A stretch of DNA of 59,654 bases from Desulfobulbaceae bacterium (GCA_030613515.1 JAUWLT010000001.1:1-59654); one strand, 5' to 3'. Counted from the first letter of the stretch, positions 14,201 to 35,115 are shown. Numbers and translations: made by a program. Notes: a model not told the origin generated them from the letters alone.

Positions 14201-15015
14201 AGTTGTGAGGGTTGAAAGATTTTACGTTGATCAGCACCGTGCAGGCGACCGAACAGAGGCAGGACCAGAGCCGGGTTCTGTAACTTTTTTTTGAGTAGTT
14301 CCACCGTGTCCAGGATATCCCGTTCCGTGGGCATAAAAACCAGGATGTCGCCACCCCCGGGATTGTCGGCAAGGGAGATAACCTCGCTGGTAGCCTGTTC
14401 CACCATGGTCTGTTCATTGTTCACGGTTGCGGTATCCGGCTCGTGGTAGCGAAAGGTAACAGGATAGGTGCGGCCTGATACCTGGATGACAGGTGCATTG
14501 CTGAAATGACGACTGAATTTTTCCGTATCAATAGTGGCTGAAGAGATGATCATTTTCAGATCTTTTCGTGATTTCAGTAACTGATGGAGGTATCCCAGCA
14601 GGAAATCAATGTTCAGGCTTCGCTCATGGGCCTCGTCAATGATAATGGTATCATACTGTGCCAGGTTGCGGTCACTTCTGGTCTCAGCCAGCAGGATACC
14701 ATCGGTCATGAACTTGATTTTCGTATCTGCCCCAGTGTGGTCATGAAAACGGATCTTGTAACCAACCAGAGCGGACGCACCCAGTTCTTCTCGTACCCGG
14801 TCAGCCATTGAAACCGCAGCAATGCGACGCGGCTGAGTACAGCCGATGATGCCCTGTCTGCCACGGCCAGCCTCAAGGCACATTTTGGGCAGCTGAGTAG
14901 TCTTACCCGAGCCGGTATCACCGGCAATGACCACCACCTGATGCTCCTGTACTGTTTTGACAATGTCAGCTCTTCTGGTTGAGATAGGCAGGATTTCAGG
15001 ATAGTGGAGTTGCAT
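11269..15015 (-). CDS. hrpA: ATP-dependent RNA helicase HrpA (DEAH box)
   Basis: 1248 aa. GDTGSGKTTQ, IIIDEAHERS, SATID, QRAGRCGR, and the long HrpA-type C-terminal region. Confidence 0.95.
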   Translation of the reverse strand: MQLHYPEILPISTRRADIVKTVQEHQVVVIAGDTGSGKTTQLPKMCLEAGRGRQGIIGCTQPRRIAAVSMADRVREELGASALVGYKIRFHDHTGADTKIKFMTDGILLAETRSDRNLAQYDTIIIDEAHERSLNIDFLLGYLHQLLKSRKDLKMIISSATIDTEKFSRHFSNAPVIQVSGRTYPVTFRYHEPDTATVNNEQTMVEQATSEVISLADNPGGGDILVFMPTERDILDTVELLKKKLQNPALVLPLFGRLHGADQRKIFQPSQLRKIIVATNVAETSITVPGILAVVDTGVARIARYNVRAGTTSLPVSRISRASCDQRAGRCGRTRPGTCIRLYSEEDYLSRPEFILPEILRSNLAEVILQMISLRLGDPRKFPFVDPPEARAINDGYRILRELGAITTDHHLTKRGRIMAGLPLDPRISRMIIEGEKLGALREVTVIAAVLAIQDPRIRPADKIEKAEAAHRKFNQPGSDVITFVNIWDSCKSAMQGKHPAAGLRKFCKTNFCSWQRMREWFDIHDQILRILKQHKGFNINTKPAQPAAIHQALTAGFLRNIGMRKKKNSYQVSGNREVILFPGSGLYNHGTQWIVAADFVHTSQLFARVVASIDVNWLERLGGDLCKRSWSDPHWRKKAGQVTALEKVTLFGLILTAGRRVNYGRINKETGREAREIFIRQALINGELGGSYPFLQHNLDLARRFADMEERLRRRGIMMDDQVLYDFYDKRLANIYDRFTLNRFLKKKKSDRFLWMDEEDICRTLPDSDELYRFPVVLQTGRGTLKLHYQFQPGHEEDGVTVDIPVQYYPALSSALFEWLVPGLLQEKIFSLLKGLPKRLRKLFVPLPIAVDRIMDGLDLYQGSLYPALEQVIFRRFQVTINREDWRVDNLPVHLRMRFRLCDEKGKTLHCSRSFHELMTYCTRAASPVSTTQQSELPEKSDITVWEFSTAPQPIPRMDRQKRITSIYYPALFVDEQKKSLTLKYIDDFEQAHLKNRIGLRFLYGLQFPREIKAIKKECKAAVAGHSASWISLGMQATAAEIKNMLANCILDGLFHTSSGELPDREQVENTVSELKQIGILKASYKYLEQILDLLATRRQVQITLTQCTQRTAQSKSYDKNRFDEYQGLLKKLLPHNFLTTIQLNEITDKKRYLQALALRIERAEYSPLKDSQKARRLQPVLNRLLQLNEREKLSIPCRKEIALYRRMVEEFRVSIFASELGTAFPVSEKRLEQQWKKLEDSCRTME

Positions 15016-19747: not shown

Positions 19748-21571
19748 ATGACCCGAACTATACGCTCACGATTTTTCTTTGTTTCCCCCTGGCTGCTTGC
19801 CGCAGCCACAGGCCTGCTTATCCTGATCGTGGTGACTTTTACCCTCAGTAACGTGCAGCGGGAAAAACAATTGATGACCGATGCCATGTTGCAGAAAGGA
19901 GCCACCTTGATGCGGGTTGTCGGCTCCGGTGCCCGTTCCGCCCACATGGCTGACCTGCATCGAGGGGGCTGGAATACTAATACATGGGATAAGTATGTGC
20001 AGCGTGTCATCAACCATTTATCTGAAGATCCTGGTGTACGCTTTTTGATGGTGGTCGACAATCAGAGCAGGGTTGTGGCCCATACTGACAGTAAAATGAT
20101 CGGTACTGTTTTAAAAAAACGGCCTGAATCTATCGAGACTGCCAAAGTAGAAAACAAACCCGGACTTGTTTACCATATAAAAACCGTTGATGGGTATGGC
20201 CGAACTTTTCTTATTACCCGGCCCTTTATGCCGTTTCGCCCGCCAATGCCGTTCATGCACCTGTACAATCGGTCACACCGTGAGAGCAGACGAAATTCCC
20301 CTTCCCCCGATATGTTGAAAAATCGCAATCGATTTTACAGAGAAATGCACAGCAGCAATATTTTTTATTCCGCTGTTGTCGGTCTTGATATGAAGAAGTA
20401 TGACAACGCTCTGCAACATTTGCGTTTCCAGGCATTTATGTTATCGCTGGCCATGCTGTTGGTTGGTCTCGGCGGCTGGCTCTCCCTTGCTGCCGTTCAG
20501 GGATATCGGCTGTCCCAGAAGGCGTTGTCTGATATCCAGGCGTTTACCGGCCTGCTTGTTTCCCGCCTGCCGGTGGGAATTATTGCCACGGATCAGCAGG
20601 GAAGGGTGAGCACCTGGAATCAGGCGGCAGCAGACATGACATCCATTTCCAGTCAACAGGCATTGGGAAAAGTGGTCCAGAAATACCTGCCCACGGAACT
20701 TACTGCATTTTTTTCACCGGATTCTGATTCGTTTGAACCAGAGGCGGAATCTAAGGGCAGGGAAATCAGGTTGATCATCAACGACTGTGAGATGGTTCTT
20801 CACTGTCAGCGCATTGATCTCCGGGATCCGGAAGAAAAATATATGGGCCGGGTGCTGTTGCTCTCTGATATTACACGCTTAAAAGATCTGGAATCTGAGA
20901 TGCGTGAAAATGAGCGGTTGGCTGCCGTGGGTAGGATGGCAGCCGGGGTTGCCCATGAGGTGCGCAACCCGCTCAGTTCAATCAAGGGGCTTGCCCTGTT
21001 GCTTAAAGGTACGTTTTCCGAGGAGAGCAGGGAGTTTGAAACCACAGGGCTGCTGATCCAAGAGGTTGAGCGCATGAATCGTACCATCTCCGAACTGCTC
21101 AGCTTTGCCCGGCCGGCGTCCCTTGATCTGCAACAAGTGGATGTTCAAGAACTGCTCTCTGAAACCCTGGAGTTAGTTGCAGCAGATACGGCCAGCGAGC
21201 ATATTCAGACTAATCTGCACTGTGACCATGACCTGCCGATGGTATTGGCTGATAGAGATCGACTCAGCCAGGTCTTTATCAATATTCTGCTCAACGGGGT
21301 ACAGGCAATGGAACAGGGAGGAACCCTGGAGATTATCGCCCGTAAATCCAGTTCCGGCAAACAGGTTGAGCTGCAGTTCAGAGACTCGGGAAAAGGGATA
21401 CAACCAGAACACCTGTCCCAACTGTTTTTCCCCTATTTTACCACCAAGAGAGGGGGAACCGGTATTGGTCTTGCCATTTCCCAGAAAATTATTGTTGATC
21501 ATGGCGGTACCATCAGGGTGGAAAGCGAGCCGGGCAAGGGAACAACGGTGTTTGTTCTGCTACCGGTGTAA
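19748..21571 (+). CDS. membrane sensor histidine kinase (ZraS/NtrB-like: periplasmic domain - PAS - HisKA - HATPase)
   Basis: Two TM segments flank a ~190-aa extracytoplasmic region. PAS: GIIATDQQGRVSTWN. H-box HEVRNPLSSIKG; N and G boxes (NILLNGVQA, DSGKGI, GGTGIGLAIS). Confidence 0.85.
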   Translation: MTRTIRSRFFFVSPWLLAAATGLLILIVVTFTLSNVQREKQLMTDAMLQKGATLMRVVGSGARSAHMADLHRGGWNTNTWDKYVQRVINHLSEDPGVRFLMVVDNQSRVVAHTDSKMIGTVLKKRPESIETAKVENKPGLVYHIKTVDGYGRTFLITRPFMPFRPPMPFMHLYNRSHRESRRNSPSPDMLKNRNRFYREMHSSNIFYSAVVGLDMKKYDNALQHLRFQAFMLSLAMLLVGLGGWLSLAAVQGYRLSQKALSDIQAFTGLLVSRLPVGIIATDQQGRVSTWNQAAADMTSISSQQALGKVVQKYLPTELTAFFSPDSDSFEPEAESKGREIRLIINDCEMVLHCQRIDLRDPEEKYMGRVLLLSDITRLKDLESEMRENERLAAVGRMAAGVAHEVRNPLSSIKGLALLLKGTFSEESREFETTGLLIQEVERMNRTISELLSFARPASLDLQQVDVQELLSETLELVAADTASEHIQTNLHCDHDLPMVLADRDRLSQVFINILLNGVQAMEQGGTLEIIARKSSSGKQVELQFRDSGKGIQPEHLSQLFFPYFTTKRGGTGIGLAISQKIIVDHGGTIRVESEPGKGTTVFVLLPV

Positions 21572-21576
21572 TAAGC

Positions 21577-21591
21577 ATTGAACCACGGATG
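21577..21591. repeat. copy of the ATTGAACCACGGATG repeat motif
   Basis: The 15-mer is identical to 55190-55204. It lies just after the kinase stop codon. Confidence 0.6.
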
Positions 21592-21640
21592 GCCACGGGT
21601 AACAAAACCGTAATCCATGTTAATCTGTGAAAAGCTGTTG

Positions 21641-22432
21641 TTAAGGAATACAGGTCTGCACGCTTGAACTGGTGATGTATACATCAAAACGAATTGTCTT
21701 GCCGGTAAGGGAATGGGAAGGGGATCTACTCGCGAAACAGGGAGCCCTGAGAGGGCGCTTAACCACCACTCTTTTGGCTGCTGTTGCCAGTGCTGCTGTC
21801 AGGAGATGTTCAGGAGAAGATTCACAGGTTACCAGCATCTGCAGCATCTGAAGTTCTTTTTTTACCCGGGCTGATTTTCGCCGCTCGGGAAACATGGGGT
21901 CCAAATAGACGACATCCACCCTCTGTCCGCTTCGTTGTATTTCCAGGAGAGCATAAACAGTATCACAGGCTGTCAACCGGATACGTTGGGCGATTTTTGT
22001 TGTTGCAGGATGGACAAGGGCACGCTTCAGGCCATCAGCAAGCAGGGCGGCTACAACCGGTTCCCGTTCAAATATCTGTACCCGGCATCCTGCAGCAGCC
22101 ATGATAAAGCTATCCCTGCCCATGCCGCCGGTCCCATCGACAACAGTAGGCGGCGCGCCTCCCTTGAAGCCTATAGCCCGAACCAGCATTTCCTGTTTTT
22201 GCTGTTGTCTGCGAAACGCGGCCTTTCCCCTGGTGAACTCAACCCTGACCGGTCCGGCAAGGTTGGGGTCACCCTGTTTAACGAGCTCAAGCCCCTTGCC
22301 GGTGTACCTCAGCAGCATATGGTATTGATCTCCCGGCCCGGCCATTGGCAGGTCAAGTTCGGCAGCCAGTTTTTCAGCCTCTGCAATCCGTGCCGGGTCA
22401 AGGGCTGCGACAGCAATATCAGGGTTCAACAT
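21641..22432 (-). CDS. rsmJ: 16S rRNA (guanine1516-N2)-methyltransferase RsmJ
   Basis: VVDGTGGMGRDSFIMAAAGCRVQIFEREPVVAALLADGL, VVYLDPMFPERRKSARVKKE, KRVVVKRP and RFDVY all run parallel to E. coli RsmJ (YhiQ). Confidence 0.88.
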   Translation of the reverse strand: MLNPDIAVAALDPARIAEAEKLAAELDLPMAGPGDQYHMLLRYTGKGLELVKQGDPNLAGPVRVEFTRGKAAFRRQQQKQEMLVRAIGFKGGAPPTVVDGTGGMGRDSFIMAAAGCRVQIFEREPVVAALLADGLKRALVHPATTKIAQRIRLTACDTVYALLEIQRSGQRVDVVYLDPMFPERRKSARVKKELQMLQMLVTCESSPEHLLTAALATAAKRVVVKRPLRAPCFASRSPSHSLTGKTIRFDVYITSSSVQTCIP

Positions 22433-22524
22433 TACAGGGGAATCTCCTGTTGTAAAGGGAGCCTGATTATCTTTGTGCGTTGATATTTCATGACGTGCAA
22501 TGTATCATGAAAAGATAAAAAAAG

Positions 22525-22633
22525 GTAACTGTTCAGGAGCACACCATCTCTGCACGGTCAGGCTGACTCACATAGGTATTACTATAGTTTGCAAGCCTGC
22601 CTGCACAGATATGGGGCACTCCTGAACAGTTAC
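22525..22633. repeat. long inverted repeat / hairpin upstream of kdsB
   Basis: 15-bp perfect arms, GTAACTGTTCAGGAG (22525-22539) with 22619-22633, and partial pairing continuing inward. The interior is 79 nt. Confidence 0.6.
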
Positions 22634-22703
22634 AGTCCCGTTGTATTGCCAATTTTTTGCATCCAACAGCACAGTTACAAAAAAGGCAACTTAAGGAAGA
22701 TTA

Positions 22704-23474
22704 ATGAGTGAACCTGATTCCAGGGTGATAGCGGTTATTCCAGCCCGTTACCATTCCAATCGTTTTGAAGGAAAGCCGCTGGCCCTGATTAATGGCAAAC
22801 CCATGATCCAGCATGTTGTTGAGCGAGCCATGCAGGTAAAGCTGCTGTCCAGGGTTGTGGTGGCAACTGATGATGACCTCATTGCCGAAGCGGTTACCTC
22901 ATTTGGGGGAGAGGTGGTCATGACCCGGCCTGATCATGCCTCGGGTACGGATCGGCTGGCCGAGGCTGCGGAGCTGTTGAACATTGAAGAGCATGATGTT
23001 GTCGTCAACATCCAAGGTGACCAGCCGTTGTTTCCGGTAGAAGTTGTTGAACAGGTTGCAGGCCCTCTGCTTGGTGATCCGGCCCTGCCCATGGCCACCC
23101 TTATCTACAAGATCATCCGGCCGGAAGAGATCAACGATCCCAACCATGTCAAGACCGTGTTTGACTGCAACGGTAATGCACTTTATTTTTCGCGCTCACC
23201 TATACCTTTCCAGCGTAATCCTGAAGAGTCTATCCAGCCGACCTATTATAAACACCTTGGTTTTTATGCCTATCGCAAGGGATTTCTGCTTACCTTTGTG
23301 GCTCTGCCGGAAGGGGAGTGGGAACGGTTTGAAAAGCTTGAACAGTTACGGGCTCTGGAGTATGGCTATACTATTCGGGTTGTACTGACTGAGCATGATT
23401 CCATTGAAGTTGATACTCCACAAGACGCGAAACGGGTGGAAGAAATCATACGTAACCAATCACTGGGTTCATAA
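22704..23474 (+). CDS. kdsB: 3-deoxy-manno-octulosonate cytidylyltransferase (CMP-Kdo synthetase)
   Basis: IAVIPARYHSNRFEGKPLALINGKPMIQHV..., NIQGDQP; 256 aa. Confidence 0.93.
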   Translation: MSEPDSRVIAVIPARYHSNRFEGKPLALINGKPMIQHVVERAMQVKLLSRVVVATDDDLIAEAVTSFGGEVVMTRPDHASGTDRLAEAAELLNIEEHDVVVNIQGDQPLFPVEVVEQVAGPLLGDPALPMATLIYKIIRPEEINDPNHVKTVFDCNGNALYFSRSPIPFQRNPEESIQPTYYKHLGFYAYRKGFLLTFVALPEGEWERFEKLEQLRALEYGYTIRVVLTEHDSIEVDTPQDAKRVEEIIRNQSLGS

Positions 23475-23518
23475 CACTGTGTTATTGCGACCTTACTGAC
23501 CAATTCAGGAGGAATACA

Positions 23519-24445
23519 ATGAAGAAAAAAATCACCATTATTGGTGCCGGCAATGTCGGTGCCACTGCTGCCCATTGGGCTCTGGCCCGTAAACTTGGCA
23601 ATATCGTGCTGCTTGATATCATGGAGGGGATCCCCCAGGGCAAGGCGCTTGATCTCTGGCAGTCCGGACCGCTGGATTCCTATGCCGGCACTGTAATCGG
23701 ATCCAATGATTATGCTGATTCAGCGGATTCAGACGTGGTTATCATCTCCGCAGGCCTGGCCCGTAAACCCGGCATGTCCCGTGATGATCTGCTGGCAAAA
23801 AACGTGGCCATTGTCAAGTCCTGTGCGGAAGAAGCGGTCAAGCACTCGCCCAACTGTTTTATGATTGTAGTCACCAATCCCATTGACGCCATGGTCCACA
23901 CCGCGTTCAAGGTTTCCGGACTTGATAAGAGCCGGATTGTCGGCATGGCAGGAGTCCTTGATACAGCCCGTTACCGGACGTTTTTAGCCGATGCCGTCGG
24001 AGTGGCACCGGCCGATGTCAATGCCCTGGTCATGGGGATTCACGGCGATAAGATGCTGCCTATGGTCAGACTGGCTAATGTGGGCGGAGTTCCGATCACA
24101 GAACTGCTGACAGAGGAGAAGATTGCAGAGATTGTCAAGCGGACCCAAGTGGGCGGGATGGAGATCGTCAATCATTTAAAGACCGGCAGCGCCTTTTTCA
24201 CACCCGGTCTGGCAGCTGTTGAAATGGCGGAAGCCGTACTGAATGACAGCAAACGGGTCATGCCTTGCGCCGCCTATCTTGAAGGTGAATTTGGTATTTC
24301 CGGCTATTTTCTTGGTGTTCCGGTTGTGTTAGGCGATAAGGGTGTGGAACGGATCCTTGAATTTGAGCTTACAGAAGACGAAAAAGCTGCACTTGAAGAT
24401 TCTGTGGCGGCTGTATCAAAACAAATGGAAGCTACAGGATTGTAA
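23519..24445 (+). CDS. mdh: malate dehydrogenase (LDH-like family)
   Basis: MKKKITIIGAGNVGATAA..., GLARKPGMSRDDL, and the active-site IHGD; 308 aa. Confidence 0.92.
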   Translation: MKKKITIIGAGNVGATAAHWALARKLGNIVLLDIMEGIPQGKALDLWQSGPLDSYAGTVIGSNDYADSADSDVVIISAGLARKPGMSRDDLLAKNVAIVKSCAEEAVKHSPNCFMIVVTNPIDAMVHTAFKVSGLDKSRIVGMAGVLDTARYRTFLADAVGVAPADVNALVMGIHGDKMLPMVRLANVGGVPITELLTEEKIAEIVKRTQVGGMEIVNHLKTGSAFFTPGLAAVEMAEAVLNDSKRVMPCAAYLEGEFGISGYFLGVPVVLGDKGVERILEFELTEDEKAALEDSVAAVSKQMEATGL

Positions 24446-24508
24446 GTGGTTAGGCTGGAATAAGCAGTTTCAAAAATGATTTTTTCTGCCTGACAACGGA
24501 CTCTGTAG

Positions 24509-26863
24509 ATGGTGAGCAATGAGACAAAGTCCCTGCAGCAACTGCTGCAGGGACTCACTAAAAAAAAGCTCAGCCCCCTGGATTTTCTAGCCAAGGGCAG
24601 CGTGACGGAACGGGTTATCTCCCTTGTTCTTGGAGAAGCAGTTCCACCAGGAGCTCTCGGTCTCAACAGAGAATGGCAGCAATTGAGCGCCGGCCTGCGC
24701 GATTTTGATGTAAGTGATCTCACTGTTGTCGTCTTCGGTGGTGGCACCGGCCTGTCCAACATTGTCGGAGGTGATTCCAGACGCCCTGGGTGGCGGCACA
24801 CGCCATTTACCGGTTTGAAAGAAGTTTTTCCAAACCTGCATTCCATTGTCTGCGTCACCGATGACGGCGGCTCAACCGGTGAAATACTGAAGGATTTTCC
24901 CCTGGTTCCCCTGGGAGACCTTCGCCATGTTCTGCTTTCCTCCATCCGCAAAACAACCCTTAAAAATAAATTCCAGCTTGATGATCAGGCAGCCTGTGGT
25001 GTTGCTAGCGGGCTGCACACCCTTTTTAATTATCGGTTTATCTCTCCTCCTGCCTCTGCAGAGCAACTGCTGGCAGACAGTACGACCGATCTGGATCTGT
25101 TTCCTGAGTCTCTGGCCGATTATCTATGTGAACTGGTAAACCGTCTGTTTGGTGATCAATGTATGACCCGGGCCTTGAAGCGGCCTCAGTGCCTGGGCAA
25201 CCTGCTCCTGGCTGCTGCCATCTATACGAATCTGCCTTCCTCTCTTGCTGCGATTGAGCCCGCAACAAGCCGGAAACAGGTCCAGGCGGCAACCATGAAG
25301 GGGCTTTCCGAGCTCTCCCTGGCCATTGGTGCAGAGTCTAAGTCCGTGCTTCCCTGTACAACAACCTCTGCCCAGCTCCAGGTGCTGTATGCAAATGGTG
25401 TCCTGGTGACCGGTGAGTGCAAGTCAGGTTCAGCCAGCCGAGGTTATCCGGTGGGTCGCGCACTGGTCGAATTCTCAGATGATCCCCTGCTGCCGGACGA
25501 AGTCGTTGAACTTATCCGCGAGGCTGATGTCATTATCATGGCACCGGGCAGCCTCTACTCCTCGATCATCCCGATTCTGCAGGTTCCGGGACTTGCCGAC
25601 CTGATCCGGCAAAACAAGACCGCTCTGAAGCTGCTGGTTGCAAACATCTGGGTGCAAAAGGGTGAAACTGATGCCACCCGAGATGCTCCTGAGCGAAAGT
25701 TTCATGTTTCAGACCTTATTCTTGCCTATGATCACAATATTTCCGGCGGCATTCAGGGGTTGTTTTCCCACGTTTTAACTTTGGATCTGGCAGATATTCC
25801 GGGCTCGGTACTGCAGAACTATGCCATTGAAGAAAAAGAACCGATCTACCTCGATCACAGTCGGGTGCGGGAACTCGGTCTTGAACCCGTAGAAGCATAC
25901 ATCTTTTCACGGGAACTTCTCCAGCAGCGAAACGTTATCCAGCACGACCCGGTTTCGCTTTCCCTTGTCGTACAGGTATTGTGTGGATTGCGTACAGGCG
26001 GATTCCTCTCTATACCGGCAGACAATGAACTGCTGCCGTTTTCCAGGAAATTTTCTGCCAATGTCCGTAGCGATCACATGATTCCGTGCCTGCGCTATGA
26101 GGAGATACGAAGAAAGCTTGAGACAATTGATTTTAAGCTTCTCGCTTTGAAATCCAGTCATGCACAAGATATGGCAGCCGATGCCCGGCTGCGTATATTT
26201 GAGCGTATTGTCGAGATAATCTGGCGTCACCCGGACATTCATCCGGATCATCTTAAATTTGTTTCCGGTGTATGCCTGATCGACACCAACTGCTGGAAAC
26301 GATGCCAGGAATGGGATAATGTTTTTTCTTTTTATGATCCAGCAGACGGATATGTTAAGATTCGCCGGGATCAGTCGGAGGATCCCAATCGGTTGGAGAT
26401 GGCCTTCCTGGTCGGCCTGGGTCAGTCCCTGCTGGGCAACTATGCCGAGGAAAAACGGCTGGAAGACGTATCCTTCCAAGGCGACAATGTGGGCCGGATC
26501 TACTGTCTGACCGTCAGGGAGGAGCATCGGCTTGCCTGTTTTTTCTCAGCAGCGGAACTTGATGTCTTCCTGAAGCTATGCCGGATGTACCCCTCACGGG
26601 AGCAGGAACGACTCTATGCCCGTTTGGTGAATGGAGAAGAGGGATTCACGCCGCCTGGTCTTCTGTTCGGACTTGTTTTTGCCTGGTACCTGGACAATCG
26701 GTTTGCCCCCAACATTGATTACAAGATGTCAATTATGAAGCATGAGTTATCCTATCTGATCCCGGAACAGGTCAGGATCGTCGGCAGACGTGAGCAGCTG
26801 ATTCGTTTTTTCAGAGAAAATGTTTTCGGTCGGCATTTGCCGCAGATCAGGTTATCAGCCTGA
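24509..26863 (+). CDS. YvcK/CofD-family (UPF0052) protein with an insertion and an uncharacterised ~285-aa C-terminal extension
   Basis: VVVFGGGTGLS, VCVTDDGGSTGEIL, PLGDLRHVL and IIMAPGSLYSSIIPIL match YvcK motifs. It is 784 aa against about 320 aa for canonical YvcK. I recognise nothing in residues ~500-784. Confidence 0.7.
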   Translation: MVSNETKSLQQLLQGLTKKKLSPLDFLAKGSVTERVISLVLGEAVPPGALGLNREWQQLSAGLRDFDVSDLTVVVFGGGTGLSNIVGGDSRRPGWRHTPFTGLKEVFPNLHSIVCVTDDGGSTGEILKDFPLVPLGDLRHVLLSSIRKTTLKNKFQLDDQAACGVASGLHTLFNYRFISPPASAEQLLADSTTDLDLFPESLADYLCELVNRLFGDQCMTRALKRPQCLGNLLLAAAIYTNLPSSLAAIEPATSRKQVQAATMKGLSELSLAIGAESKSVLPCTTTSAQLQVLYANGVLVTGECKSGSASRGYPVGRALVEFSDDPLLPDEVVELIREADVIIMAPGSLYSSIIPILQVPGLADLIRQNKTALKLLVANIWVQKGETDATRDAPERKFHVSDLILAYDHNISGGIQGLFSHVLTLDLADIPGSVLQNYAIEEKEPIYLDHSRVRELGLEPVEAYIFSRELLQQRNVIQHDPVSLSLVVQVLCGLRTGGFLSIPADNELLPFSRKFSANVRSDHMIPCLRYEEIRRKLETIDFKLLALKSSHAQDMAADARLRIFERIVEIIWRHPDIHPDHLKFVSGVCLIDTNCWKRCQEWDNVFSFYDPADGYVKIRRDQSEDPNRLEMAFLVGLGQSLLGNYAEEKRLEDVSFQGDNVGRIYCLTVREEHRLACFFSAAELDVFLKLCRMYPSREQERLYARLVNGEEGFTPPGLLFGLVFAWYLDNRFAPNIDYKMSIMKHELSYLIPEQVRIVGRREQLIRFFRENVFGRHLPQIRLSA

Positions 26864-26865
26864 TC

Positions 26866-28557
26866 ATGACCTCCAACACAACAAATACAATTGCCTCAGG
26901 AAACGGAAAGCCTCTACTCGATAGACAGGCAGCACAAGAGAACACCCGGATTGAGGAGCTGAACAGGAAGCTTTCCCGCGAGATCAGCCTACGGAAATCA
27001 ATGGAAGAATCGCAACCAAATGCGCTCCAGGAATGGCAATCTATCTTTGACGCCCTCAATGAACCGGTCATTATTCTGGATAAGGACCGTACTGCAGTCA
27101 AGGCTAATCAAGCTGCCTGTGAACTCCTATCCTCAGAAAATGAAGATATTATCGGTCAGAAATGTTACCAGCTTTTTCTTGGTAGACCTTCTCCCTGCAC
27201 AGACTGTTCGCTGCAGTCTGTGGATCTAAACTGCAGAAGATATGAGATGGAGGTAGAAGGCCGTTTTTCAGGCAAGATCCTTCGGGTTACCTGCGCCCCG
27301 GTGTTCCAGGGAACAGAGCTGGTCGGCTATGTCCATTCCGCTCTTGATATCAGCCACCAGCGAAATCTGGAAAAGCAACTGGCCTGGGCACAAAAAATGG
27401 AGGCTATCGCCACTCTGGCCGGAGGAATTGCCCATGATTTTAATAATATTTTAGGCGTAATTCTGGGCAATTCCGACCTGCTCCTCTACCGTCTGCCTGA
27501 CAGTTGCAGTCAGATAAACGGAGACCAGGGTCAACTGGGTGTTGGGGATATTAAAGACCATCTTACCGCAATTCAGAAAGCCGGTCTGAGGGCCAAAGAC
27601 CTGGTGAGCCAGATTCTTGCCTTTAGCAGACAAACTGCAACCAGTCGCAGGGAAGTTATCATCACCCCGGTGGTCAAGGAGGTCGTAAAACTGCTCCAAT
27701 CGTCCCTGCCTGCAACCATTGAACTGCATGCTGAGTTTGCCGGGGATATCGGCTATATTTTTGCCGACCCCACCCAAGTTCATCAAGTCCTGATGAATCT
27801 CTGTACCAATGCTGTTGATGCCCTTAATAATCAGTATGGCCGGATTGAAATTTCTTTGCATGAGACAAAAATCGGTTCCAGGAAGAAGCCATCCTTTGAA
27901 CTGAAAAATGGTGAATACGTTGTACTCTCTGTGCGCGATAATGGTATCGGCATGACCGACGATATCATGGAGCGAATATTTGACCCTTTTTTTACCACTC
28001 GCGAGGTGGGCGAGGGAACAGGAATGGGACTGGCAGTCCTGCATGGTATTGTCACGGCCCATAATGGTATCATTGATGTCCGCTCGGAGCCGGGTAAAGG
28101 GTCTATTTTTACGATTTACTTTCCTAAAATAGTGGTCCGGGAAAACAGCAGCGAAAAAGATTCGCTGATCAATCTGCCCATAGGTTCGGAGACCATTATT
28201 TTTGCCGATGATGAGGAAGATATTGTAAAAATGTATACCGAAATGTTAGAATATTTAGGGTATACAGTCATTCCGGCTGCTAACGGTGAACAGGTGCTCT
28301 CGTACCTGGAAAACCATTTGCAGGAGGTCGACCTGGTCATTACGGATCAGACTATGCCACAAATGACCGGCCTTGAACTTGCGGACAAAATTCACGGTCT
28401 GCGCAGTGACCTGCCGGTTATTCTCTGTTCAGGATACAGCGAAACAGTTTTTGATAAAGCGACCAGGCAGGCTGGAATTAATAAATTTCTTGCCAAACCC
28501 CTGAAGATGAAAGATCTTGCTGTAACGATTCACCAAGTTTTTTTCGAGACTAAGTAG
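26866..28557 (+). CDS. cytoplasmic PAS - HisKA - HATPase - REC hybrid histidine kinase
   Basis: No TM segment. The PAS domain has a Cys cluster (PSPCTDCS). H-box GIAHDFNNILG; DNGIGM and GTGMGLAV; receiver DLVITDQTMPQMTG. It starts 2 nt after the upstream stop. Confidence 0.88.
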   Translation: MTSNTTNTIASGNGKPLLDRQAAQENTRIEELNRKLSREISLRKSMEESQPNALQEWQSIFDALNEPVIILDKDRTAVKANQAACELLSSENEDIIGQKCYQLFLGRPSPCTDCSLQSVDLNCRRYEMEVEGRFSGKILRVTCAPVFQGTELVGYVHSALDISHQRNLEKQLAWAQKMEAIATLAGGIAHDFNNILGVILGNSDLLLYRLPDSCSQINGDQGQLGVGDIKDHLTAIQKAGLRAKDLVSQILAFSRQTATSRREVIITPVVKEVVKLLQSSLPATIELHAEFAGDIGYIFADPTQVHQVLMNLCTNAVDALNNQYGRIEISLHETKIGSRKKPSFELKNGEYVVLSVRDNGIGMTDDIMERIFDPFFTTREVGEGTGMGLAVLHGIVTAHNGIIDVRSEPGKGSIFTIYFPKIVVRENSSEKDSLINLPIGSETIIFADDEEDIVKMYTEMLEYLGYTVIPAANGEQVLSYLENHLQEVDLVITDQTMPQMTGLELADKIHGLRSDLPVILCSGYSETVFDKATRQAGINKFLAKPLKMKDLAVTIHQVFFETK

Positions 28558-28559
28558 AT

Positions 28560-28928
28560 ATGCGTATACTTGTTATAGATGATGATGAACAGATGCGTGT
28601 CCTTTTGGATCAGGCCATGCAATGGGCGGGGTTTGAAGTCGTAACGGCTGAAAATGGTCGCCAGGGACAGCAACTGTTTGAAGAACAGCCTGCCGACCTG
28701 ATCATCACCGATCTGATCATGCCTGAACAGGAAGGGTTGGAGACTATCCGTATCCTGAAGCAGGGGTATCCGACAGTAAAGATAATCGCAATTTCCGGTG
28801 GCGGCCGAATAGGGCCGGAGGCCTACCTGCCTGCTGCCATGGAGCTCGGAGCCGACCGGATCTTTGCCAAACCCTTTGATGTCAAGGAACTGATCTCTGC
28901 TGTCCATGAGTTGCTGGGCAACGACTGA
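28560..28928 (+). CDS. stand-alone CheY-like receiver protein
   Basis: 122 aa. MRILVIDDDE..., DLIITDLIMPEQEG, AKPF. It starts 2 nt after the kinase stop. Confidence 0.9.
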   Translation: MRILVIDDDEQMRVLLDQAMQWAGFEVVTAENGRQGQQLFEEQPADLIITDLIMPEQEGLETIRILKQGYPTVKIIAISGGGRIGPEAYLPAAMELGADRIFAKPFDVKELISAVHELLGND

Positions 28929-29018
28929 ACCCGACAGTGGACAGGGGAGCCCCTTTATTATTTACTGCTTTTTCACTCTTTCTTGAAATAATCTGTAACA
29001 AACTGTCTGCCTGTCATC

Positions 29019-30023
29019 ATGTATCTTGCCCGTCGTTTCATTAATAATCGTCTTCATTATCAGTTGCGCGAGTCCTTCCTTGAAGGGGATATTTACAGGA
29101 ACCGGGAACTTATTGATCTTGGTGCCAATCCTGGTAAATATATCGTCTATCCCGGCGGCTCTTCTTTTTACATTGACGATAGGGTTTTTGATCTTCTGAA
29201 AACCTCAGGTTTTGATGCTGATTACGATGAGGTGGAATCCTTTTTCCTGCCCTTTCTTGACCCATACATTCGAACCCGGATTGATCCTTTTTTAAACAGG
29301 ACAGCTAACAGGGGCTGGAAACGGATTGATGAGCCGACCCGGCAGCGTATCTTTACCAACACCCATATCTTTGATCGCAGACGAATCCATTTCCTCCGCT
29401 TCGGCCAGACCGATCTTCGTGAGCTGGACCGTTCACCCTCCCTGTTCAAGATCCTGCTTGATAAATCCCGTGACGAGCTGGAACAACTGGTGCTTGAGCG
29501 GGAGCAGGATCTGCGCCCCCAGGAGTATAAACGCTATATCTTTGCCATCTTTGATCTGCAGCATTACTTTACTGAAATCTGTGCCAGGACCATGCCCCAT
29601 GCCCTGGACAGTGACAGGCTTGACGACTGTTTTTTACAAGAGCTCTGTCGGTTGGACAGCGACAAGCTTTTCTGGCAGGGGATGGAACGTGATAGGGGCT
29701 TGGTTTCCTACATGATCCGTTATGTGGTCATGTTTTTTGATTATGCTTTTCCCGGCGGTCAGACCTGGGATGAGTTTGTTCGGGCACATATCGGTTCCGG
29801 CCACCGTGCAGGACCCATGAAAGGTTCCCGGCGCATGTCCATGCGCGAGGTCACTACCGTCTTCGGCGTCAGCCAGTCCAAACTTTCCGCCATGAGTAGG
29901 TCTGCCCTGACCCGGCTGTACCGCAAAAAAGCACAGCAGATGCATCCTGACAAGGGCGGTGATCATGAGCAGTTTATTGAACTGACCACTGCCTATAACG
30001 AACTGCTGCGCACCAAATTGTGA
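29019..30023 (+). CDS. protein with an unknown N-terminal domain and a C-terminal J-domain (HPD motif)
   Basis: The last ~50 aa, LTRLYRKKAQQMHPDKGGDHEQFIELTTAYNELL, correspond to J-domain helices II-III with HPD. I recognise no domain in residues 1-270. The stop overlaps the start of the next gene (GTGA). Confidence 0.65.
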   Translation: MYLARRFINNRLHYQLRESFLEGDIYRNRELIDLGANPGKYIVYPGGSSFYIDDRVFDLLKTSGFDADYDEVESFFLPFLDPYIRTRIDPFLNRTANRGWKRIDEPTRQRIFTNTHIFDRRRIHFLRFGQTDLRELDRSPSLFKILLDKSRDELEQLVLEREQDLRPQEYKRYIFAIFDLQHYFTEICARTMPHALDSDRLDDCFLQELCRLDSDKLFWQGMERDRGLVSYMIRYVVMFFDYAFPGGQTWDEFVRAHIGSGHRAGPMKGSRRMSMREVTTVFGVSQSKLSAMSRSALTRLYRKKAQQMHPDKGGDHEQFIELTTAYNELLRTKL

Positions 30024-31798
30024 CCTCTCAGCCTTCTGCGTCCGGACAGCGTCCCGGCATCGCTCCATTGCTTGGTCTGATCCGTCCAATTTACCATCGC
30101 TACCTGCCGCGCTTGCTGCTTGGTTTTCTGGCCCTGTTAGCTGTTGACTTCCTGCAGCTGACCATTCCCAGGTACTTGAAAAATGGTGTTGATACCCTGG
30201 CAGGCGGGACTGCAACCGGTCACAGCCTGCTCATTCTCGGTGGGTATATCCTGGTTACGGCTGCATTCATAGGTATGCTCCGCTTTTGCTGGCGTACCCT
30301 GATTATCGGCTTTTCCAGGCGGCTGGAAAAAATCCTGCGCAACCGTCTTTTTTCCCATATTCTGGAAATGGACCGGCCTTTTTTTGATCGCCATACCACA
30401 GGCGATATCATGGCCCATGCAACCAACGACCTTTCTGCTGTACAGATGGCCTGCGGCATGGGTATGGTCGCAGCTGCCGATGCCCTTGTCATGTCCACGG
30501 CAGCTCTTTTTTTCATGGCCCATATCAGTCCGACGCTGACCCTGATCGCCATCATTCCCATGCCCTTGCTGGCATTTTGTACCTGGATCCTGTCCGGCAG
30601 GCTGCATAAGCGGTTCGACCTGGTACAGGAACAGTTTTCTCTGCTTACTGAATTTGCACGCAATACAATGGTATCTATCCGGCTGATCAAGGGCTATACC
30701 AGAGAGCACCAGCAGATTAAAGATTTTGAGACCCTGGGTAGGGAGTATGTTGCAAGCAATCTCAAGGTCGCTTTTATTCAGGGACTGCTCTTTCCAGTGG
30801 CCACGCTGGTTGGCAATACCGGGATGCTGCTGGTACTGTACTTCGGTGGCCGGCTGGTGATCAATAACGCCATCACCCTGGGTGATTTTGTCGCCTTTGT
30901 CACCTACCTGTACATGCTGGTCTGGCCGATGATGGCTGTGGGCTGGGTAACCAACCTGGCCCAGCGCGGCCTGACCTCGCTGGCCAGGATTTATCGACTG
31001 CTTGCTGCAGAACCTCTGCTGACTGGTACCGAAAAACCGGATAATAAGCCGCAGATTCAATCATTCATCTTTTTATGCCGTAACCTTAATTTTACCTATC
31101 CCAATGGGGTCGCACCCGCTCTGTCAGGCGTCAATCTTGAAATAGGGCCGGGCATACTCGGTGTGGCAGGCAGAACAGGTTCCGGGAAATCAACCCTGTG
31201 CAGGCTGCTGACCAGGCAATACCCAGTGGCCGAGGGCATGCTCTTTTTTTCCGGTCGTGATGTGAACAGCTTTACGCCGGCAATGATCAGAAAACAGATC
31301 AGCTACGTCAGCCAGCAGCCTGTTCTCTTCTCCAGCTCGGTTGGGGAGAATATCAGCCTGGCAAATCCCGATGCGTCCCTGGATGAGATCACAGCAGTTG
31401 CCCGGTTGGCGGCCATCCATGATGAAATAATGGAGATGCCTGACGGCTATAAAACTACCATCGGAGAGAGGGGACTGCGACTATCCGGAGGTCAGAAACA
31501 ACGGATCGCCATTGCCCGAGCCCTGCTGGCCGACCGACCGATCCTGATCATTGACGACGCCCTGTCCGCACTTGATACTGAAACTGAGCAACAGGTCTTT
31601 GCCGGCATCCGTACCCGGCTGCAGTCCAAGACCGTACTTATTGTTTCCCACCGTTTGAGACTCCTCTCCGGAACCGATAGAGTTATTGTTCTTGACCGGG
31701 GCCGCATTGTTGACCGTGGCAACCATCAGCAAATGTTGGACCGGAATGATTTCTACCGGGCAATGGCACGAAAACAGCAGAGGAAGGCTGATGCGTAA
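30020..31798 (+). CDS. ABC exporter, fused TMD-NBD half-transporter (MsbA/MdlA-like)
   Basis: Six TM helices, then GRTGSGKST, LSGGQKQRIAIARAL, ILIIDDALSALD. Confidence 0.9.
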   Translation: MTSQPSASGQRPGIAPLLGLIRPIYHRYLPRLLLGFLALLAVDFLQLTIPRYLKNGVDTLAGGTATGHSLLILGGYILVTAAFIGMLRFCWRTLIIGFSRRLEKILRNRLFSHILEMDRPFFDRHTTGDIMAHATNDLSAVQMACGMGMVAAADALVMSTAALFFMAHISPTLTLIAIIPMPLLAFCTWILSGRLHKRFDLVQEQFSLLTEFARNTMVSIRLIKGYTREHQQIKDFETLGREYVASNLKVAFIQGLLFPVATLVGNTGMLLVLYFGGRLVINNAITLGDFVAFVTYLYMLVWPMMAVGWVTNLAQRGLTSLARIYRLLAAEPLLTGTEKPDNKPQIQSFIFLCRNLNFTYPNGVAPALSGVNLEIGPGILGVAGRTGSGKSTLCRLLTRQYPVAEGMLFFSGRDVNSFTPAMIRKQISYVSQQPVLFSSSVGENISLANPDASLDEITAVARLAAIHDEIMEMPDGYKTTIGERGLRLSGGQKQRIAIARALLADRPILIIDDALSALDTETEQQVFAGIRTRLQSKTVLIVSHRLRLLSGTDRVIVLDRGRIVDRGNHQQMLDRNDFYRAMARKQQRKADA

Positions 31799-33578
31799 CT
31801 TCGGTTATTTTGAAGAGGGCAGAATCGGCCGCATTTCCGATACCCGAATCTGGCAGCGGTTGTTCACCTACTGCCGGGTTCACAAGATAGGTCTTGCTGC
31901 AGCGATACTGCTGTCCATGCTGGTCACCGCTACAACCCTTACCCTACCACGGCTCATGCAGATGGCCATTGACAACTGCATGACCGCAACCGGGATAGAT
32001 ATTGCTTCGCGGATGGGCGGTCTTGGTGAGCTGGCCCTGATATACGGATTTGCTGTTGTTATTACCTTTGCAGCAGGTTTTGTCCAGGTGATATTGCTGG
32101 AGTATATTGGTCAGTCCATCATGAACCGGCTGCGAAATGATCTATACCGTCACCTGCTTTGCCTGGATTTGGCCTTTTTTCATTCCCATCCAGCAGGACG
32201 CCTTGTTACCCGGCTGACTAATGATATCCAGAATATGCACGAGATGTTTACCTCGGTCATGGTAACCCTGTTTAATGATGCGCTCAAACTTATCGGCATC
32301 CTGGTGGTCCTGTACCTGTTAAATGTCCGGCTGGCCATGGTCATGACTGTTTTTCTACCCCTGTCCCTGACCGTAACTCTGCTCTTCTCAAGGCTTGCAA
32401 GGGACCGTTTCCGGGCCATCCGCAGCCAGCTTGCCGTACTTAACGCTTTTCTTCAGGAAACCGTGTCAGCAGTAAATGTTCTCCAGCTCTTTGGCAGACA
32501 GCAGGAGAGTCTCAGCAGGTTCAAGGAACTCAACCAGGAATATTTGCAGCGCACTCTGCGTCAGATTCGATTGTTCGGTACCTTTATGCCCTTGACCGAA
32601 TTCCTTGGTTCTCTGGCCATGGCCACCATCCTCTGGTACGGAGGCAGCGAAATTATCAGAGAGCAGTTGACCCTGGGCGAGCTGGTGGCATTTTTTGCCT
32701 ATATGCGACTTTTTTTTCAACCCATGCGCGAATTGTCTCAGAAATACTCCATTGTTCAGTCCGCCATGGCCTCAGCCGAACGTATTTTTCAACTTTTGGA
32801 TACCAGGAGCAGTATCAACGCACCTGAGCATCCCCTGCAAGGAGAACTGATTAAAGGGGAGATACGATTTGAAAAGGTAAGTTTCCGTTACCCGGATGAA
32901 AAAGAAGAAGTTCTCCATGCTATCGACCTGCAGATAATGGCGGGAGAAACCGTAGCCTTGGTGGGTTCCACCGGTGCCGGAAAATCCACCTTAATCAGCC
33001 TTCTTGTCAGGTTTTACGATCCTACCGGCGGTAAAATCCTGATTGATGGCCATGAACTGCACGAGTTTTCCCCTGAGACCTTGCGGGAAAAGATTGGTAT
33101 TGTTCTCCAGGATGTGCTCATTGAACCTGATACCATACTTGCTAATATTGCTCTGGGGACAGGCAAGGACCGGCAGCATGTTCAGGAGATTCTTGAGCAG
33201 ACAGGTATGGATCCTTTTATTGGACGCCTGCCCGATGGTCTTGATACCCGGATAGGGGAGGGAGGGCTTGACCTGTCAGCAGGGGAAAAACAACTGCTTG
33301 CCTTTGCCCGTGTCCTGTGTCGCAACCCTACTGTTCTGATCCTGGACGAGGCAACCGCATCTGTTGACACTGAGGCTGAAAACCTGCTGGAGCAGGCAAT
33401 TAGCGCTGGTTTCAGTGGTCGAACATCAGTGGTTATTGCCCATCGTCTTTCCACTGTCCGCCGGGCAGACCGGATCGTGGTCATGGACAGGGGCAGGATT
33501 GTGGAGCAGGGCAGCCACGAAGAGTTGATGGAGAACCATGGTGTCTATGCGGACCTGATTACTATGGATTTGCAATAG
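31791..33578 (+). CDS. ABC exporter, fused TMD-NBD half-transporter (MsbA/MdlB-like partner)
   Basis: GSTGAGKST, LSAGEKQLLAFARVL, VLILDEATASVD. ATG at 31791 follows AGGAAGG and overlaps the upstream stop (ATGCGTAA). The longer ORF from 31686 is only overlap. Confidence 0.9.
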   Translation: MRNFGYFEEGRIGRISDTRIWQRLFTYCRVHKIGLAAAILLSMLVTATTLTLPRLMQMAIDNCMTATGIDIASRMGGLGELALIYGFAVVITFAAGFVQVILLEYIGQSIMNRLRNDLYRHLLCLDLAFFHSHPAGRLVTRLTNDIQNMHEMFTSVMVTLFNDALKLIGILVVLYLLNVRLAMVMTVFLPLSLTVTLLFSRLARDRFRAIRSQLAVLNAFLQETVSAVNVLQLFGRQQESLSRFKELNQEYLQRTLRQIRLFGTFMPLTEFLGSLAMATILWYGGSEIIREQLTLGELVAFFAYMRLFFQPMRELSQKYSIVQSAMASAERIFQLLDTRSSINAPEHPLQGELIKGEIRFEKVSFRYPDEKEEVLHAIDLQIMAGETVALVGSTGAGKSTLISLLVRFYDPTGGKILIDGHELHEFSPETLREKIGIVLQDVLIEPDTILANIALGTGKDRQHVQEILEQTGMDPFIGRLPDGLDTRIGEGGLDLSAGEKQLLAFARVLCRNPTVLILDEATASVDTEAENLLEQAISAGFSGRTSVVIAHRLSTVRRADRIVVMDRGRIVEQGSHEELMENHGVYADLITMDLQ

Positions 33579-33634: not shown

Positions 33635-35115
33635 TCAATGTCATTAACTTAAGATTTCTTTCGAATATATTATTGTAAAAACAGCATGTTAATGTTATAT
33701 TTCAGCACAGATCGTTATCCAAATCTACCTATTCACACAAGGAGAGAGACATGGCTGAATTATTTCAAAAGAATCACCAAACTGGCACAGAATCTGATTT
33801 TCAATACATGTGCCAATCTTATTAATTTCATTAAAAATATTATATATTCGCAAGAATTTCTCGAAATAAGCCGAAAAAACAATAAAGACTTTTCACGCAC
33901 CAGAAAATTGCCATTTGCGCTCCTTGTTCTCTATTTGTGCAACCTCACCAAAAGCTCATACCAACCAGAGCTGAACAAATTCTTCAAAATCCTTACCAGA
34001 TCCACCGTAGCGAAAAATATTGTAAGCAAGGTAGCCCTTTGCAAAGCAAGAAAGAAGCTAAAATATGAGGCGTTTACAGATCTAAACAAACAGTCTGTTG
34101 AATACTTCAATGCCAACTTCAATCCATCAAAATGGAATGGCTTCTTTCTGAAAGCTGTGGATGGTTCTACAGTTAAGTTGCCAGATTTTCCAGAGATCAG
34201 TGAACATTTCGGGACATGGAATCCACGGAAAGGTAATCCTTTTCCAATGGCTCGTATTTCTCAAATGTTTGATCCTCTCAATAGGGTTACAACCCATGCC
34301 CTGATCAGTCCCAAAAGTGTGGGAGAAAGGGAAATGGCAGCCAATCATTTTGAACATCTCACCGATCAGGATCTTGTCTTGTTGGATCGTGGTTATCCTG
34401 CATTCTGGCTTTTTAAACTCATCCTTTCTTATAATGCACATTTCTGTTCCAGAATTTCCATCAAAAAATGGAAGATTGTTCGTGAGTTTATTAGTTCTGG
34501 TAAACAGGAGCAGATTGTTTCGATAGAGGCTCCCACTACGTCCATTGCTGCTTGCCAGGAGTATGGGTTGGATCTATGCCCTATGAAATTACGCCTCATC
34601 CGTGTGGAATTGGACTCTGAAGAACCAGAAGTCCTCATTACATCGCTACTCGACAGCGAAAAATATCCAACTGATCTATTTGCCGAACTCTATCACGACC
34701 GTTGGCCTGTGGAAGAAGATTACAAGGTGATGAAGTGCAGGATAGAGCTGGAAAACTTCTCAGGAAAAAGTTCATTGTCAGTTTACCAGGATTTCCACGC
34801 CCGCACATTTTCAAAGAACATCACTTCAATGCTTGCCTTTGCCGCTCAACCAATCGTAGAAGAAACAGCAAACGACAAGGAACACAACTACAAAATCAAT
34901 TTCACTCAGGCTCTTTCAACAATGAGAGATACCATCGTGATACTATTGGTTAAATCAACTACAGCGATTCAGAGCATTGTCTCCGATATTCTGGATACAT
35001 TTGCTATGGCAACCGAACCCGTTCGACCGGGAAGAAAATTTCCGCGTAATCATAAAAGAGCGCAGAGGAAGTATTGTTTGAATTACAAACCAATTCTTTA
35101 AGTTAATGACATTGA
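33635..35115 (+). mobile_element. intact IS4-family insertion sequence (about 1.48 kb)
   Basis: 18-bp perfect terminal inverted repeats TCAATGTCATTAACTTAA (33635-33652 with 35098-35115). It is flanked by an 8-bp direct repeat TCTCTGAA (33627-33634 and 35116-35123) and is more AT-rich than its flanks. Confidence 0.88.
33686..35101 (+). CDS. IS4-family DDE transposase
   Basis: DDE candidates are LKAVDGSTVKLP, LVLLDRGYPAF and the YHDRWPVEEDYKVMK (Y-R-E-K) block. The stop lies inside the right inverted repeat. Confidence 0.85.
   Translation: MLMLYFSTDRYPNLPIHTRRETWLNYFKRITKLAQNLIFNTCANLINFIKNIIYSQEFLEISRKNNKDFSRTRKLPFALLVLYLCNLTKSSYQPELNKFFKILTRSTVAKNIVSKVALCKARKKLKYEAFTDLNKQSVEYFNANFNPSKWNGFFLKAVDGSTVKLPDFPEISEHFGTWNPRKGNPFPMARISQMFDPLNRVTTHALISPKSVGEREMAANHFEHLTDQDLVLLDRGYPAFWLFKLILSYNAHFCSRISIKKWKIVREFISSGKQEQIVSIEAPTTSIAACQEYGLDLCPMKLRLIRVELDSEEPEVLITSLLDSEKYPTDLFAELYHDRWPVEEDYKVMKCRIELENFSGKSSLSVYQDFHARTFSKNITSMLAFAAQPIVEETANDKEHNYKINFTQALSTMRDTIVILLVKSTTAIQSIVSDILDTFAMATEPVRPGRKFPRNHKRAQRKYCLNYKPIL

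Follow-up and report, generated by a model that had tools for sequence, protein, structure and literature searches.

A long YvcK/CofD-fold protein with an undescribed C-terminal domain, encoded near kdsB and two-component genes in Desulfobulbaceae

YvcK/GlmR proteins are checkpoint proteins for the supply of UDP-N-acetylglucosamine (UDP-GlcNAc), which in Gram-positive bacteria matter for cell-wall integrity, antibiotic tolerance and virulence. Their mechanism is debated, with regulation of GlmS on one side and an accessory uridyltransferase activity on the other. Here we analyzed the gene for an enlarged relative, which we call long YvcK, in a stretch of 59,654 nucleotides (nt) from a Desulfobulbaceae bacterium (GCA_030613515.1, JAUWLT010000001.1:1-59654). 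We refer to the whole stretch as the window and count positions from its first letter; the DNA runs containing it are cold-seep and marine-sediment metagenomes.

In Bacillus subtilis, GlmR (YvcK) binds UDP-GlcNAc, activates GlmS and is a partner of YvcJ/RapZ (PMC6171935, PMC7525490). It switches protein partners according to UDP-GlcNAc, and substituting either Y265 or R301 abolishes the binding of this ligand (PMC7525490). GlmR of Listeria monocytogenes is an accessory UDP-GlcNAc uridyltransferase, and in a D40/D41/N198 triple mutant this activity is cut ~100-fold (PMC10128056). An initial annotation of the locus, made from the sequence, had held that canonical YvcK is not a signalling protein, which understates the case because GlmR responds to UDP-GlcNAc and has protein partners (PMC7525490). 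Our literature search found no paper joining YvcK/CofD-like proteins to Desulfobulbales or to two-component systems.

Like B. subtilis GlmR, long YvcK has a CofD-like fold, and by analogy it could plausibly be a metabolite-responsive regulator tied to envelope precursors. Unlike that protein of ~320 residues, it comprises 784, with an N-terminal extension, insertions and a novel C-terminal domain (C-domain), and its host is a Gram-negative sulfate reducer. The yvcJ/rapZ synteny (with whiA in Firmicutes) was not found either; instead, the neighbours are kdsB and two-component genes. What is new is the undescribed C-domain together with altered residues at the ligand and activity sites, and the family that carries them is narrow. 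Because the C-domain has no detected relative, these site residues are altered, and the proteins occur in sulfate reducers and Kiritimatiellia, the YvcK scaffold appears to have been adapted to another use.

The long YvcK subfamily and its N-terminal domain

A search of 5.8 billion proteins returned 1337 matches to long YvcK. The 120 matches that were listed are ~780 amino acids (aa) long and align end to end, apart from a few shorter fragments, and the gene is real. Among the listed matches, those with names belong to Desulfobulbus, Electrothrix, Electronema and Desulfolithobacter, and their annotation reads just "YvcK family" or "CofD family". Listed family members range from 669 to 808 aa, versus ~320 aa for canonical YvcK. 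Their hosts are Gram-negative sulfate reducers, including cable bacteria, as well as Kiritimatiellia, "Spartobacteria" (Verrucomicrobia) and other unplaced lineages.

The four motifs by which the protein had initially been recognized are all present in the translation (GGGTGL at residues 77-82, TDDGGSTG at 117-124, LGDLR at 135-139 and PGSLYSSIIP at 346-355), and the proposed YvcK/CofD region, residues ~73-495, agrees with a Pfam CofD match (PF01933) on residues 73-463 with an E-value of 2e-45. The extra sequence that had been noticed between the motifs is also real: 391 residues cover 287 positions of the PF01933 profile, so that ~100 residues are inserted in the CofD domain. These insertions are helical and lie mainly within residues ~145-262; the HMMER alignment to 2O2Z, the B. 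halodurans YvcK orthologue and nearest solved structure, is interrupted by a helical insertion, which leaves the two blocks 72-157 and 263-485. The N-terminal domain (N-domain) superposes on 2O2Z (Foldseek E 4e-19, template-modelling score TMt 0.86), while matches to FbiA/CofD are weaker (TMt ~0.55). Its match to the NCBIfam YvcK model TIGR01826 is split into two stretches and scores 123.2 bits against a cutoff of 196. Since the N-domain falls below this cutoff, long YvcK can be classed, on sequence grounds, as a distinct "long" subfamily of the YvcK/GlmR (CofD-fold) proteins.

Ahead of the CofD domain, the N-terminal extension contains three helices in the AlphaFold2 (AF2) model (residues 2-17, 32-40 and 53-64), and L24, D25 and E34 are invariant in it among 41 homologues. 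The full-length model has a predicted local distance difference test score (pLDDT) of 83.8 and a predicted template-modelling score (pTM) of 0.85; this pTM indicates a fixed arrangement between the N- and C-domains.

To locate substitutions that set the subfamily apart, we compared 60 long-family sequences with 44 canonical YvcK open reading frames (ORFs) of 312-490 aa from metagenome loci. GGGTGL, DDGGS(S/T)G, GDxR, PGSLY(T/S)S and QxGET are present and invariant or nearly so across both groups, and both retain the D118/D119 pair and Y438. Five positions cleanly divide the groups. Position 140, within the GDxRN motif, is N in canonical proteins and H, K or R in long ones; position 356 changes from N (37/44) to I, V or L (59/60), position 358 from L to Q and position 443 from A to K; and at position 478 the canonical R (40/44) is replaced by Q or H (59/60), with K in the remaining sequence. 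Two of these positions correspond to functional residues of the described proteins. Y438, kept in 60/60 long-family sequences, aligns with Y265 of B. subtilis GlmR, and position 478 with R301, so of the pair required for UDP-GlcNAc binding one residue is kept and the other replaced. Likewise, D118/D119 align with D40/D41 of Listeria GlmR and position 356 with N198; of these putative uridyltransferase residues, the aspartates are invariant and the asparagine is lost. Because the equivalents of both R301 and N198 are replaced, a UDP-GlcNAc-like binding mode is improbable. The phosphate-binding core and the scaffold are retained, and the ligand or the reaction probably differs from the canonical one.

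Two other assignments within the superfamily were rejected. Long YvcK shares the superfamily and the PF01933 model with CofD/FbiA, the 2-phospho-L-lactate/phosphoenolpyruvate transferase of F420 biosynthesis, but it is clearly no orthologue of it: TIGR01819 gives 21.3 bits, far below the cutoff of 257, and the neighbours examined in the window include no cof or fbi gene. The "GAK system CofD-like" model TIGR04357 matches only locally, over 50 residues (29 bits vs a cutoff of 340).

The C-terminal domain

The initial annotation had noted that residues ~500-784 match nothing recognizable, and neither sequence profiles nor the predicted fold revealed a known domain there. Pfam and NCBIfam, run on the whole protein, gave no match over residues ~496-784; Pfam gave no significant match on 33 C-domain sequences; and a C-domain profile found nothing significant among PDB sequences (best E 0.33). 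Modelled separately with AF2, residues 498-784 form an alpha/beta structure with two long hairpin sheets (pLDDT 86.4, pTM 0.83). Foldseek matched this model to nothing in PDB or BFVD with E < 0.001 (best TM ≤0.37), so that the absence of a structural relative applies to solved (PDB) and viral (BFVD) structures.

The distribution of the domain was followed with phmmer, using residues 492-784, which returned 90 clusters among 1.84 billion representatives at 50% identity. In every full-length match (669-788 aa) the domain lies at the C-terminus, and the shorter matches look like fragments. All ten full-length matches scanned with Pfam (10/10) have a CofD domain at the N-terminus as their sole Pfam match. 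To judge from these sequences, the C-domain exists exclusively in a CofD-fused architecture. Residues ~496-555 form a variable linker and residues ~556-778 a conserved core with the motifs WxHxDIxxxHL, WxRxQxWDNVxSFYDP, LGQSLLGNY, GFTPPGLLFGLxYAWYLDNRF and FFRExVF. The residues invariant among 33 diverse members are chiefly Gly, Trp, Leu, Pro and Phe, plus H581 and R769. We consider that the C-domain merits a domain-family entry of its own, since databases file these proteins under the two family labels mentioned above.

Two other readings of the domain were discarded. An internal duplication of the CofD domain finds no support in hhalign, which gives only the self-match of the C-domain and no relation to the N-domain. 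Weak, scattered matches to zincin-like peptidases recur (4qhf, 3lmc, 1eb6 and some phage "metallopeptidases"); this identity was rejected because the C-domain has neither HExxH nor a conserved set of metal ligands.

Gene order and transcription

We then compared the surroundings of long YvcK genes in 80 species-level genome loci, all of Desulfobulbales type, with counts taken over the evaluable ones (64 or 68). Their order is rsmJ (opposite strand), kdsB, (mdh), long YvcK, (hybrid kinase), receiver, (second kinase), J-protein, ABC1 and ABC2, where brackets mark genes that are not always present; the last two are ATP-binding cassette (ABC) exporters which, like the J-protein gene, are syntenic in most loci. 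Upstream, kdsB lies on the same strand in 64/64 loci, and mdh stands between it and long YvcK in 35/64. In 65 of 68 loci, a gene encoding a REC domain follows no more than 3 kb downstream. Of the three exceptions, two belong to contigs that break off within the kinase gene, which leaves L055 as the only locus truly without a downstream REC. An orthologue of the stand-alone CheY-like receiver (57-93% identity) is present downstream in 64/68 loci, including those that have no kinase, while the hybrid-kinase orthologue occurs in 49/68 and is missing from 19, among them all Electrothrix loci examined, where the receiver directly follows long YvcK. The hybrid kinase is dispensable at the long YvcK locus, and of the two-component genes in the cluster the receiver is the constant one.

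A sister clade with 44-48% identity to the window protein, represented by metagenome contigs found through alignment of distant members, retains the upstream order rsmJ (opposite strand), kdsB, (mdh), long YvcK, with kdsB in 11/11 loci. Just 4/12 loci of the clade have REC genes in the 3 kb that follow, and the downstream content is variable: a cyclase with a PAS-HD protein, HrpA or an L,D-transpeptidase on the opposite strand or, in L110, the J-protein/ABC module directly after long YvcK with no receiver. Among more distant members, a REC-first kinase gene overlaps or abuts the long YvcK gene in the Desulfotalea-like loci L082 and L086. In Kiritimatiellia, Verrucomicrobia and other unplaced loci, a two-component neighbour was found in 0/13 and kdsB in 0/12. 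The neighbours in these distant lineages are mixed (alpha-amylase, accBC, NUDIX, PAS-LuxR, MqnA-like and thiolase genes), and clustering of flanking ORFs from 20 loci outside Desulfobulbales gave thiolase, in 5 loci, as the sole recurrent neighbour and nothing general.

These counts bear on the two points at which the initial annotation could have failed, a known domain in the extension and a lack of linkage to two-component genes in related genomes. The extension contains no known domain, and the linkage is conserved among relatives within Desulfobulbales; it does not hold for the family as a whole, and given 4/12 in the sister clade and 0/13 in distant lineages it is not a family property. 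Within Desulfobulbales, kdsB is a more widely conserved neighbour than the kinase or the receiver.

Several variations in these loci were recorded alongside. In one subclade the kinase has 888 aa (L015:10343-13009, and others in which the PAS domain is offset by ~1.1 kb); its ~320 extra N-terminal residues are apparently a membrane-anchored sensor region, and its start overlaps the stop of long YvcK. In many loci the receiver is followed by a second kinase gene (REC-PAS-kinase-REC) that is absent from the window. In the sister clade, a translationally coupled gene for a PrmA-like methyltransferase overlaps the stop of long YvcK in three loci (L104:4265-5176, L105:8121-9026 and L112:5781-6674), where it replaces the kinase and receiver, and is followed by a PAS hybrid kinase in L104 and by a GAF-GGDEF protein in L112. 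The HrpA-type helicase is encoded ~9.5 kb upstream of long YvcK in the window and directly downstream of it, on the opposite strand, in the sister-clade loci L101, L103 and L118, which suggests that the region was locally rearranged between the clades. Finally, one contig labelled as a Promethearchaeota archaeon metagenome-assembled genome (L071, JAIWHJ010000156.1) carries rsmJ, kdsB, mdh and long YvcK with 74-81% protein identity to the window; given this Desulfobulbales arrangement and identity, it is probably a mis-binned bacterial contig.

The junctions around long YvcK are tight. The 2-nt spacing initially reported on both sides of the kinase gene was read again from the sequence (TGA-TC-ATG and TAG-AT-ATG), and the corresponding genes overlap or abut in L015, L082 and L086. 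Fragments of kdsB, mdh, long YvcK and the kinase gene were found in two low-coverage cold-seep RNA libraries, and one 223-nt contig from such a library (26672-26891, 0 mismatches) bridges the junction between long YvcK and the kinase gene, which is consistent with their co-transcription. Consensus scans also gave a promoter-like site upstream of kdsB (22480-22508) and a small hairpin after the receiver (28943-28955), both suggestive only; since terminator-like sites are not enriched above chance (13 found vs 12 expected), we treat these sites as weak evidence.

Possible functions of long YvcK

The explanation we favour, tentatively and at a little under an even chance, is by analogy with GlmR: long YvcK would be a nucleotide- or nucleotide-sugar-binding checkpoint protein or accessory transferase of envelope-precursor metabolism, co-expressed with a phosphorelay in Desulfobulbaceae. 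The N-domain would bind a nucleotide or nucleotide sugar as GlmR does, with an altered specificity pocket, and the residue changes suggest that the ligand is probably bound otherwise than UDP-GlcNAc is in B. subtilis GlmR. As a metabolic checkpoint or accessory transferase, the protein would serve envelope-precursor supply, a role that rests on GlmR homology and kdsB adjacency and that fits the conserved position behind kdsB. The C-domain would pack on the N-domain as a single unit and act as a module for partner binding or regulation. In Desulfobulbaceae, the two-component block, with its variable kinase and constant receiver, would be co-transcribed between long YvcK and the J-protein/ABC module, so that the expression, and possibly the activity, of checkpoint protein and phosphorelay might be coupled. 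Such coupling would be a lineage-specific addition outside the core function of the family. Four points weigh against this explanation. The replacement of two GlmR functional residues could signal a quite different substrate or function; kdsB adjacency drops to 0/12 in Kiritimatiellia, Verrucomicrobia and other unplaced loci; synteny conserved within a single order can reflect inheritance instead of selection; and the run of the bridging contig is only guessed to be RNA ("RNA?"), with a depth of ~2.

A closer tie to the two-component genes, along the lines of the phosphorelay-feeding module raised in the initial annotation, can be read from adjacency, although we think it unlikely: long YvcK could serve the neighbouring phosphorelay as ligand-sensing input, accessory or phosphotransfer partner, in which case its C-domain would bind the kinase or REC and nucleotide-sugar status would set receiver phosphorylation. 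The persistence of the receiver orthologue in 64/68 loci, while the kinase, mdh and the second kinase come and go, speaks for this, as do the REC-first kinases that overlap or abut long YvcK in L082 and L086, and the window kinase itself is cytoplasmic with a single PAS domain as input. In addition, none of the 10 proteins encoded at 19748-33578 has a Pfam match to histidine phosphotransfer (Hpt) domains, so a partner of the phosphorelay may be missing, and the switching of GlmR partners by UDP-GlcNAc offers a precedent (PMC7525490). However, lineages without an adjacent two-component gene (0/13 elsewhere, 4/12 in the sister clade) conserve the C-domain just as well, and hence its general role is not to bind REC or a kinase. 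In L110 the J-protein/ABC module takes the place behind long YvcK with no receiver, the two-component block might just as well be part of the downstream module, and Foldseek gave the C-domain no structural similarity to Hpt, CheX/CheC or kinase-binding domains. We rate still lower the specific proposal that long YvcK is a cytoplasmic nucleotide-sugar sensor whose C-domain docks on REC and sets the phosphorylation of the CheY-like receiver, and we are just as doubtful that, so docked, it would be a ligand-gated accessory subunit or a phosphotransfer/phosphatase partner of an Hpt-less phosphorelay. If true, it would add both a new protein fold and a new type of input module to two-component signalling. 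In any case, this operon, with its hybrid kinase and highly conserved receiver in one lineage, offers a concrete case in which to test whether a CofD-fold metabolite binder talks to a phosphorelay.

The link to kdsB, for its part, could reflect catalysis. Long YvcK might be an enzyme of lipopolysaccharide or other envelope glycoconjugates tied to kdsB, of the CofD/FbiA phosphotransferase or GlmR nucleotidyltransferase type, that uses a nucleotide-activated donor and binds the acceptor through its C-domain, the two-component genes being mere operon neighbours. Adjacency to kdsB is indeed the most widely conserved feature in Desulfobulbales (64/64 and 11/11), DDGGS(T/S)G, GGGTGL and QxGET(D) are invariant, the equivalent DD pair is part of the Listeria GlmR triple mutant that kills activity (PMC10128056), and CofD and FbiA, which share the fold, are true transferases. 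Several conserved Trp and Tyr residues of the C-domain would fit sugar binding, and alpha-amylase, NUDIX and glycosyltransferase-like genes occur among the neighbours outside Desulfobulbales. Against it stand the loss of the N198 equivalent (I/V/L in 59/60), the absence of kdsB linkage outside Desulfobulbales (0/12), the heterogeneity of the neighbours in other lineages, and invariant C-domain residues that show no obvious catalytic set; we see this enzyme as no likelier than the phosphorelay input. It seems less probable again that the gene order is inherited without functional coupling and that long YvcK is a housekeeping protein unrelated to both kdsB and the phosphorelay. All linked loci do come from one order, and in the sister clade the downstream block is rearranged (PrmA-like methyltransferase, GGDEF, cyclase, HrpA, L,D-transpeptidase). 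These genomes are rich in signalling genes; the window encodes a further kinase and a GGDEF-REC-HD protein (Table 1), and the density of such genes in the source genome makes coincidental adjacency likelier. Nevertheless, the adjacency has survived divergence of long YvcK to ~47% identity and the gain and loss of intervening genes, and the 2-nt or overlapping junctions suggest translational coupling.

Neighbouring genes and other features of the window

The genes surrounding long YvcK are listed in Table 1. The initial annotation had correctly named kdsB upstream and exporters downstream but omitted the mdh and J-protein genes that lie between; rsmJ is on the minus strand upstream of kdsB.

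Table 1. Coordinates of long YvcK, its parts and other features of the window
Feature	Position (nt)	Strand	Size, support or remarks
GGDEF-REC-HD (GYP-type) protein	9502-11028	-	
HrpA-type helicase	11269-15015	-	DEAD, HA2, OB, DUF3418
Cache-PAS kinase, AtoS/ZraS-like	19748-21571	+	
kdsB (CMP-Kdo synthetase; Kdo, 3-deoxy-D-manno-octulosonate)	22704-23474	+	Pfam CTP_transf_3 E 1e-59; NCBIfam kdsB above cutoff
Malate dehydrogenase (mdh)	23519-24445	+	NCBIfam TIGR01763, 423 bits vs cutoff 352
Long YvcK ORF	24509-26863	+	784 aa
N-terminal extension of long YvcK (residues 1-72)	24509-24724	+	helical, family-specific
YvcK/CofD-fold domain of long YvcK (residues 73-495)	24725-25993	+	PF01933; Foldseek 2O2Z
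Conserved core of the C-domain of long YvcK (residues ~556-778)	26174-26842	+	phmmer, AF2
Hybrid kinase, PAS-HisKA-HATPase-REC	26866-28557	+	563 aa; Pfam; cytoplasmic
Stand-alone CheY-like receiver	28560-28928	+	122 aa; Pfam Response_reg E 2e-24
Protein with C-terminal J-domain	29019-30023	+	334 aa; weak Pfam DnaJ at residues 292-329; HPD motif
Half-size ABC exporter pair (SmdA/SmdB- or MsbA-like)	30020-33578	+	Pfam ABC_membrane and ABC_tran
DDE transposase	33686-35101		PF01609

Both two-component proteins agree with their initial description. Pfam domains and translation gave the PAS-HisKA-HATPase-REC kinase with its PSPCTDCS motif, and the third ORF encodes a receiver domain alone. The kinase has the HisKA H-box and the HATPase, with the motifs AHDFNN, DNGIGM and GEGTGMGL; the receiver has the acidic pocket DDD7-9, the phospho-Asp D51, S79 and K104. 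The pair resembles CckA-type kinases and CpdR/DivK-type receivers in the AHDFNN type of H-box, the C-terminal REC and the lack of an output domain, and CpdR is the best NCBIfam match of the window receiver. Unlike CckA/CpdR systems, they fall well short of the equivalog cutoffs (scores of 300 vs 1000 and 78 vs 180), no Hpt protein (ChpT-like) is encoded in the cluster, and the PAS domain carries a Cys triad. The triad consists of C100, C111 and C114 (27163-27207; C-Y-x-L-F-x5-P-C-x2-C) and is kept in 54/56 orthologues. It is no CXXCH haem-c motif, and the sequence suggests metal, Fe-S or redox sensing.

Downstream, the J-protein carries MHPDKGGD, and its first ~280 residues match no family. 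The NCBIfam SmdA and MsbA matches of the exporters are below their cutoffs. For the second exporter, the mechanically called ORF (31686-33578) starts at TTG 31686; the start is probably ATG 31791, which is preceded by GGAAGG and overlaps the stop of ABC1 (31796-31798) by 8 nt. Immediately 3' of the exporter pair lies the transposase gene, and the GC content falls to 0.42-0.44 from about 34 kb; the conserved cluster may end here, or the zone may be a mobile insertion.

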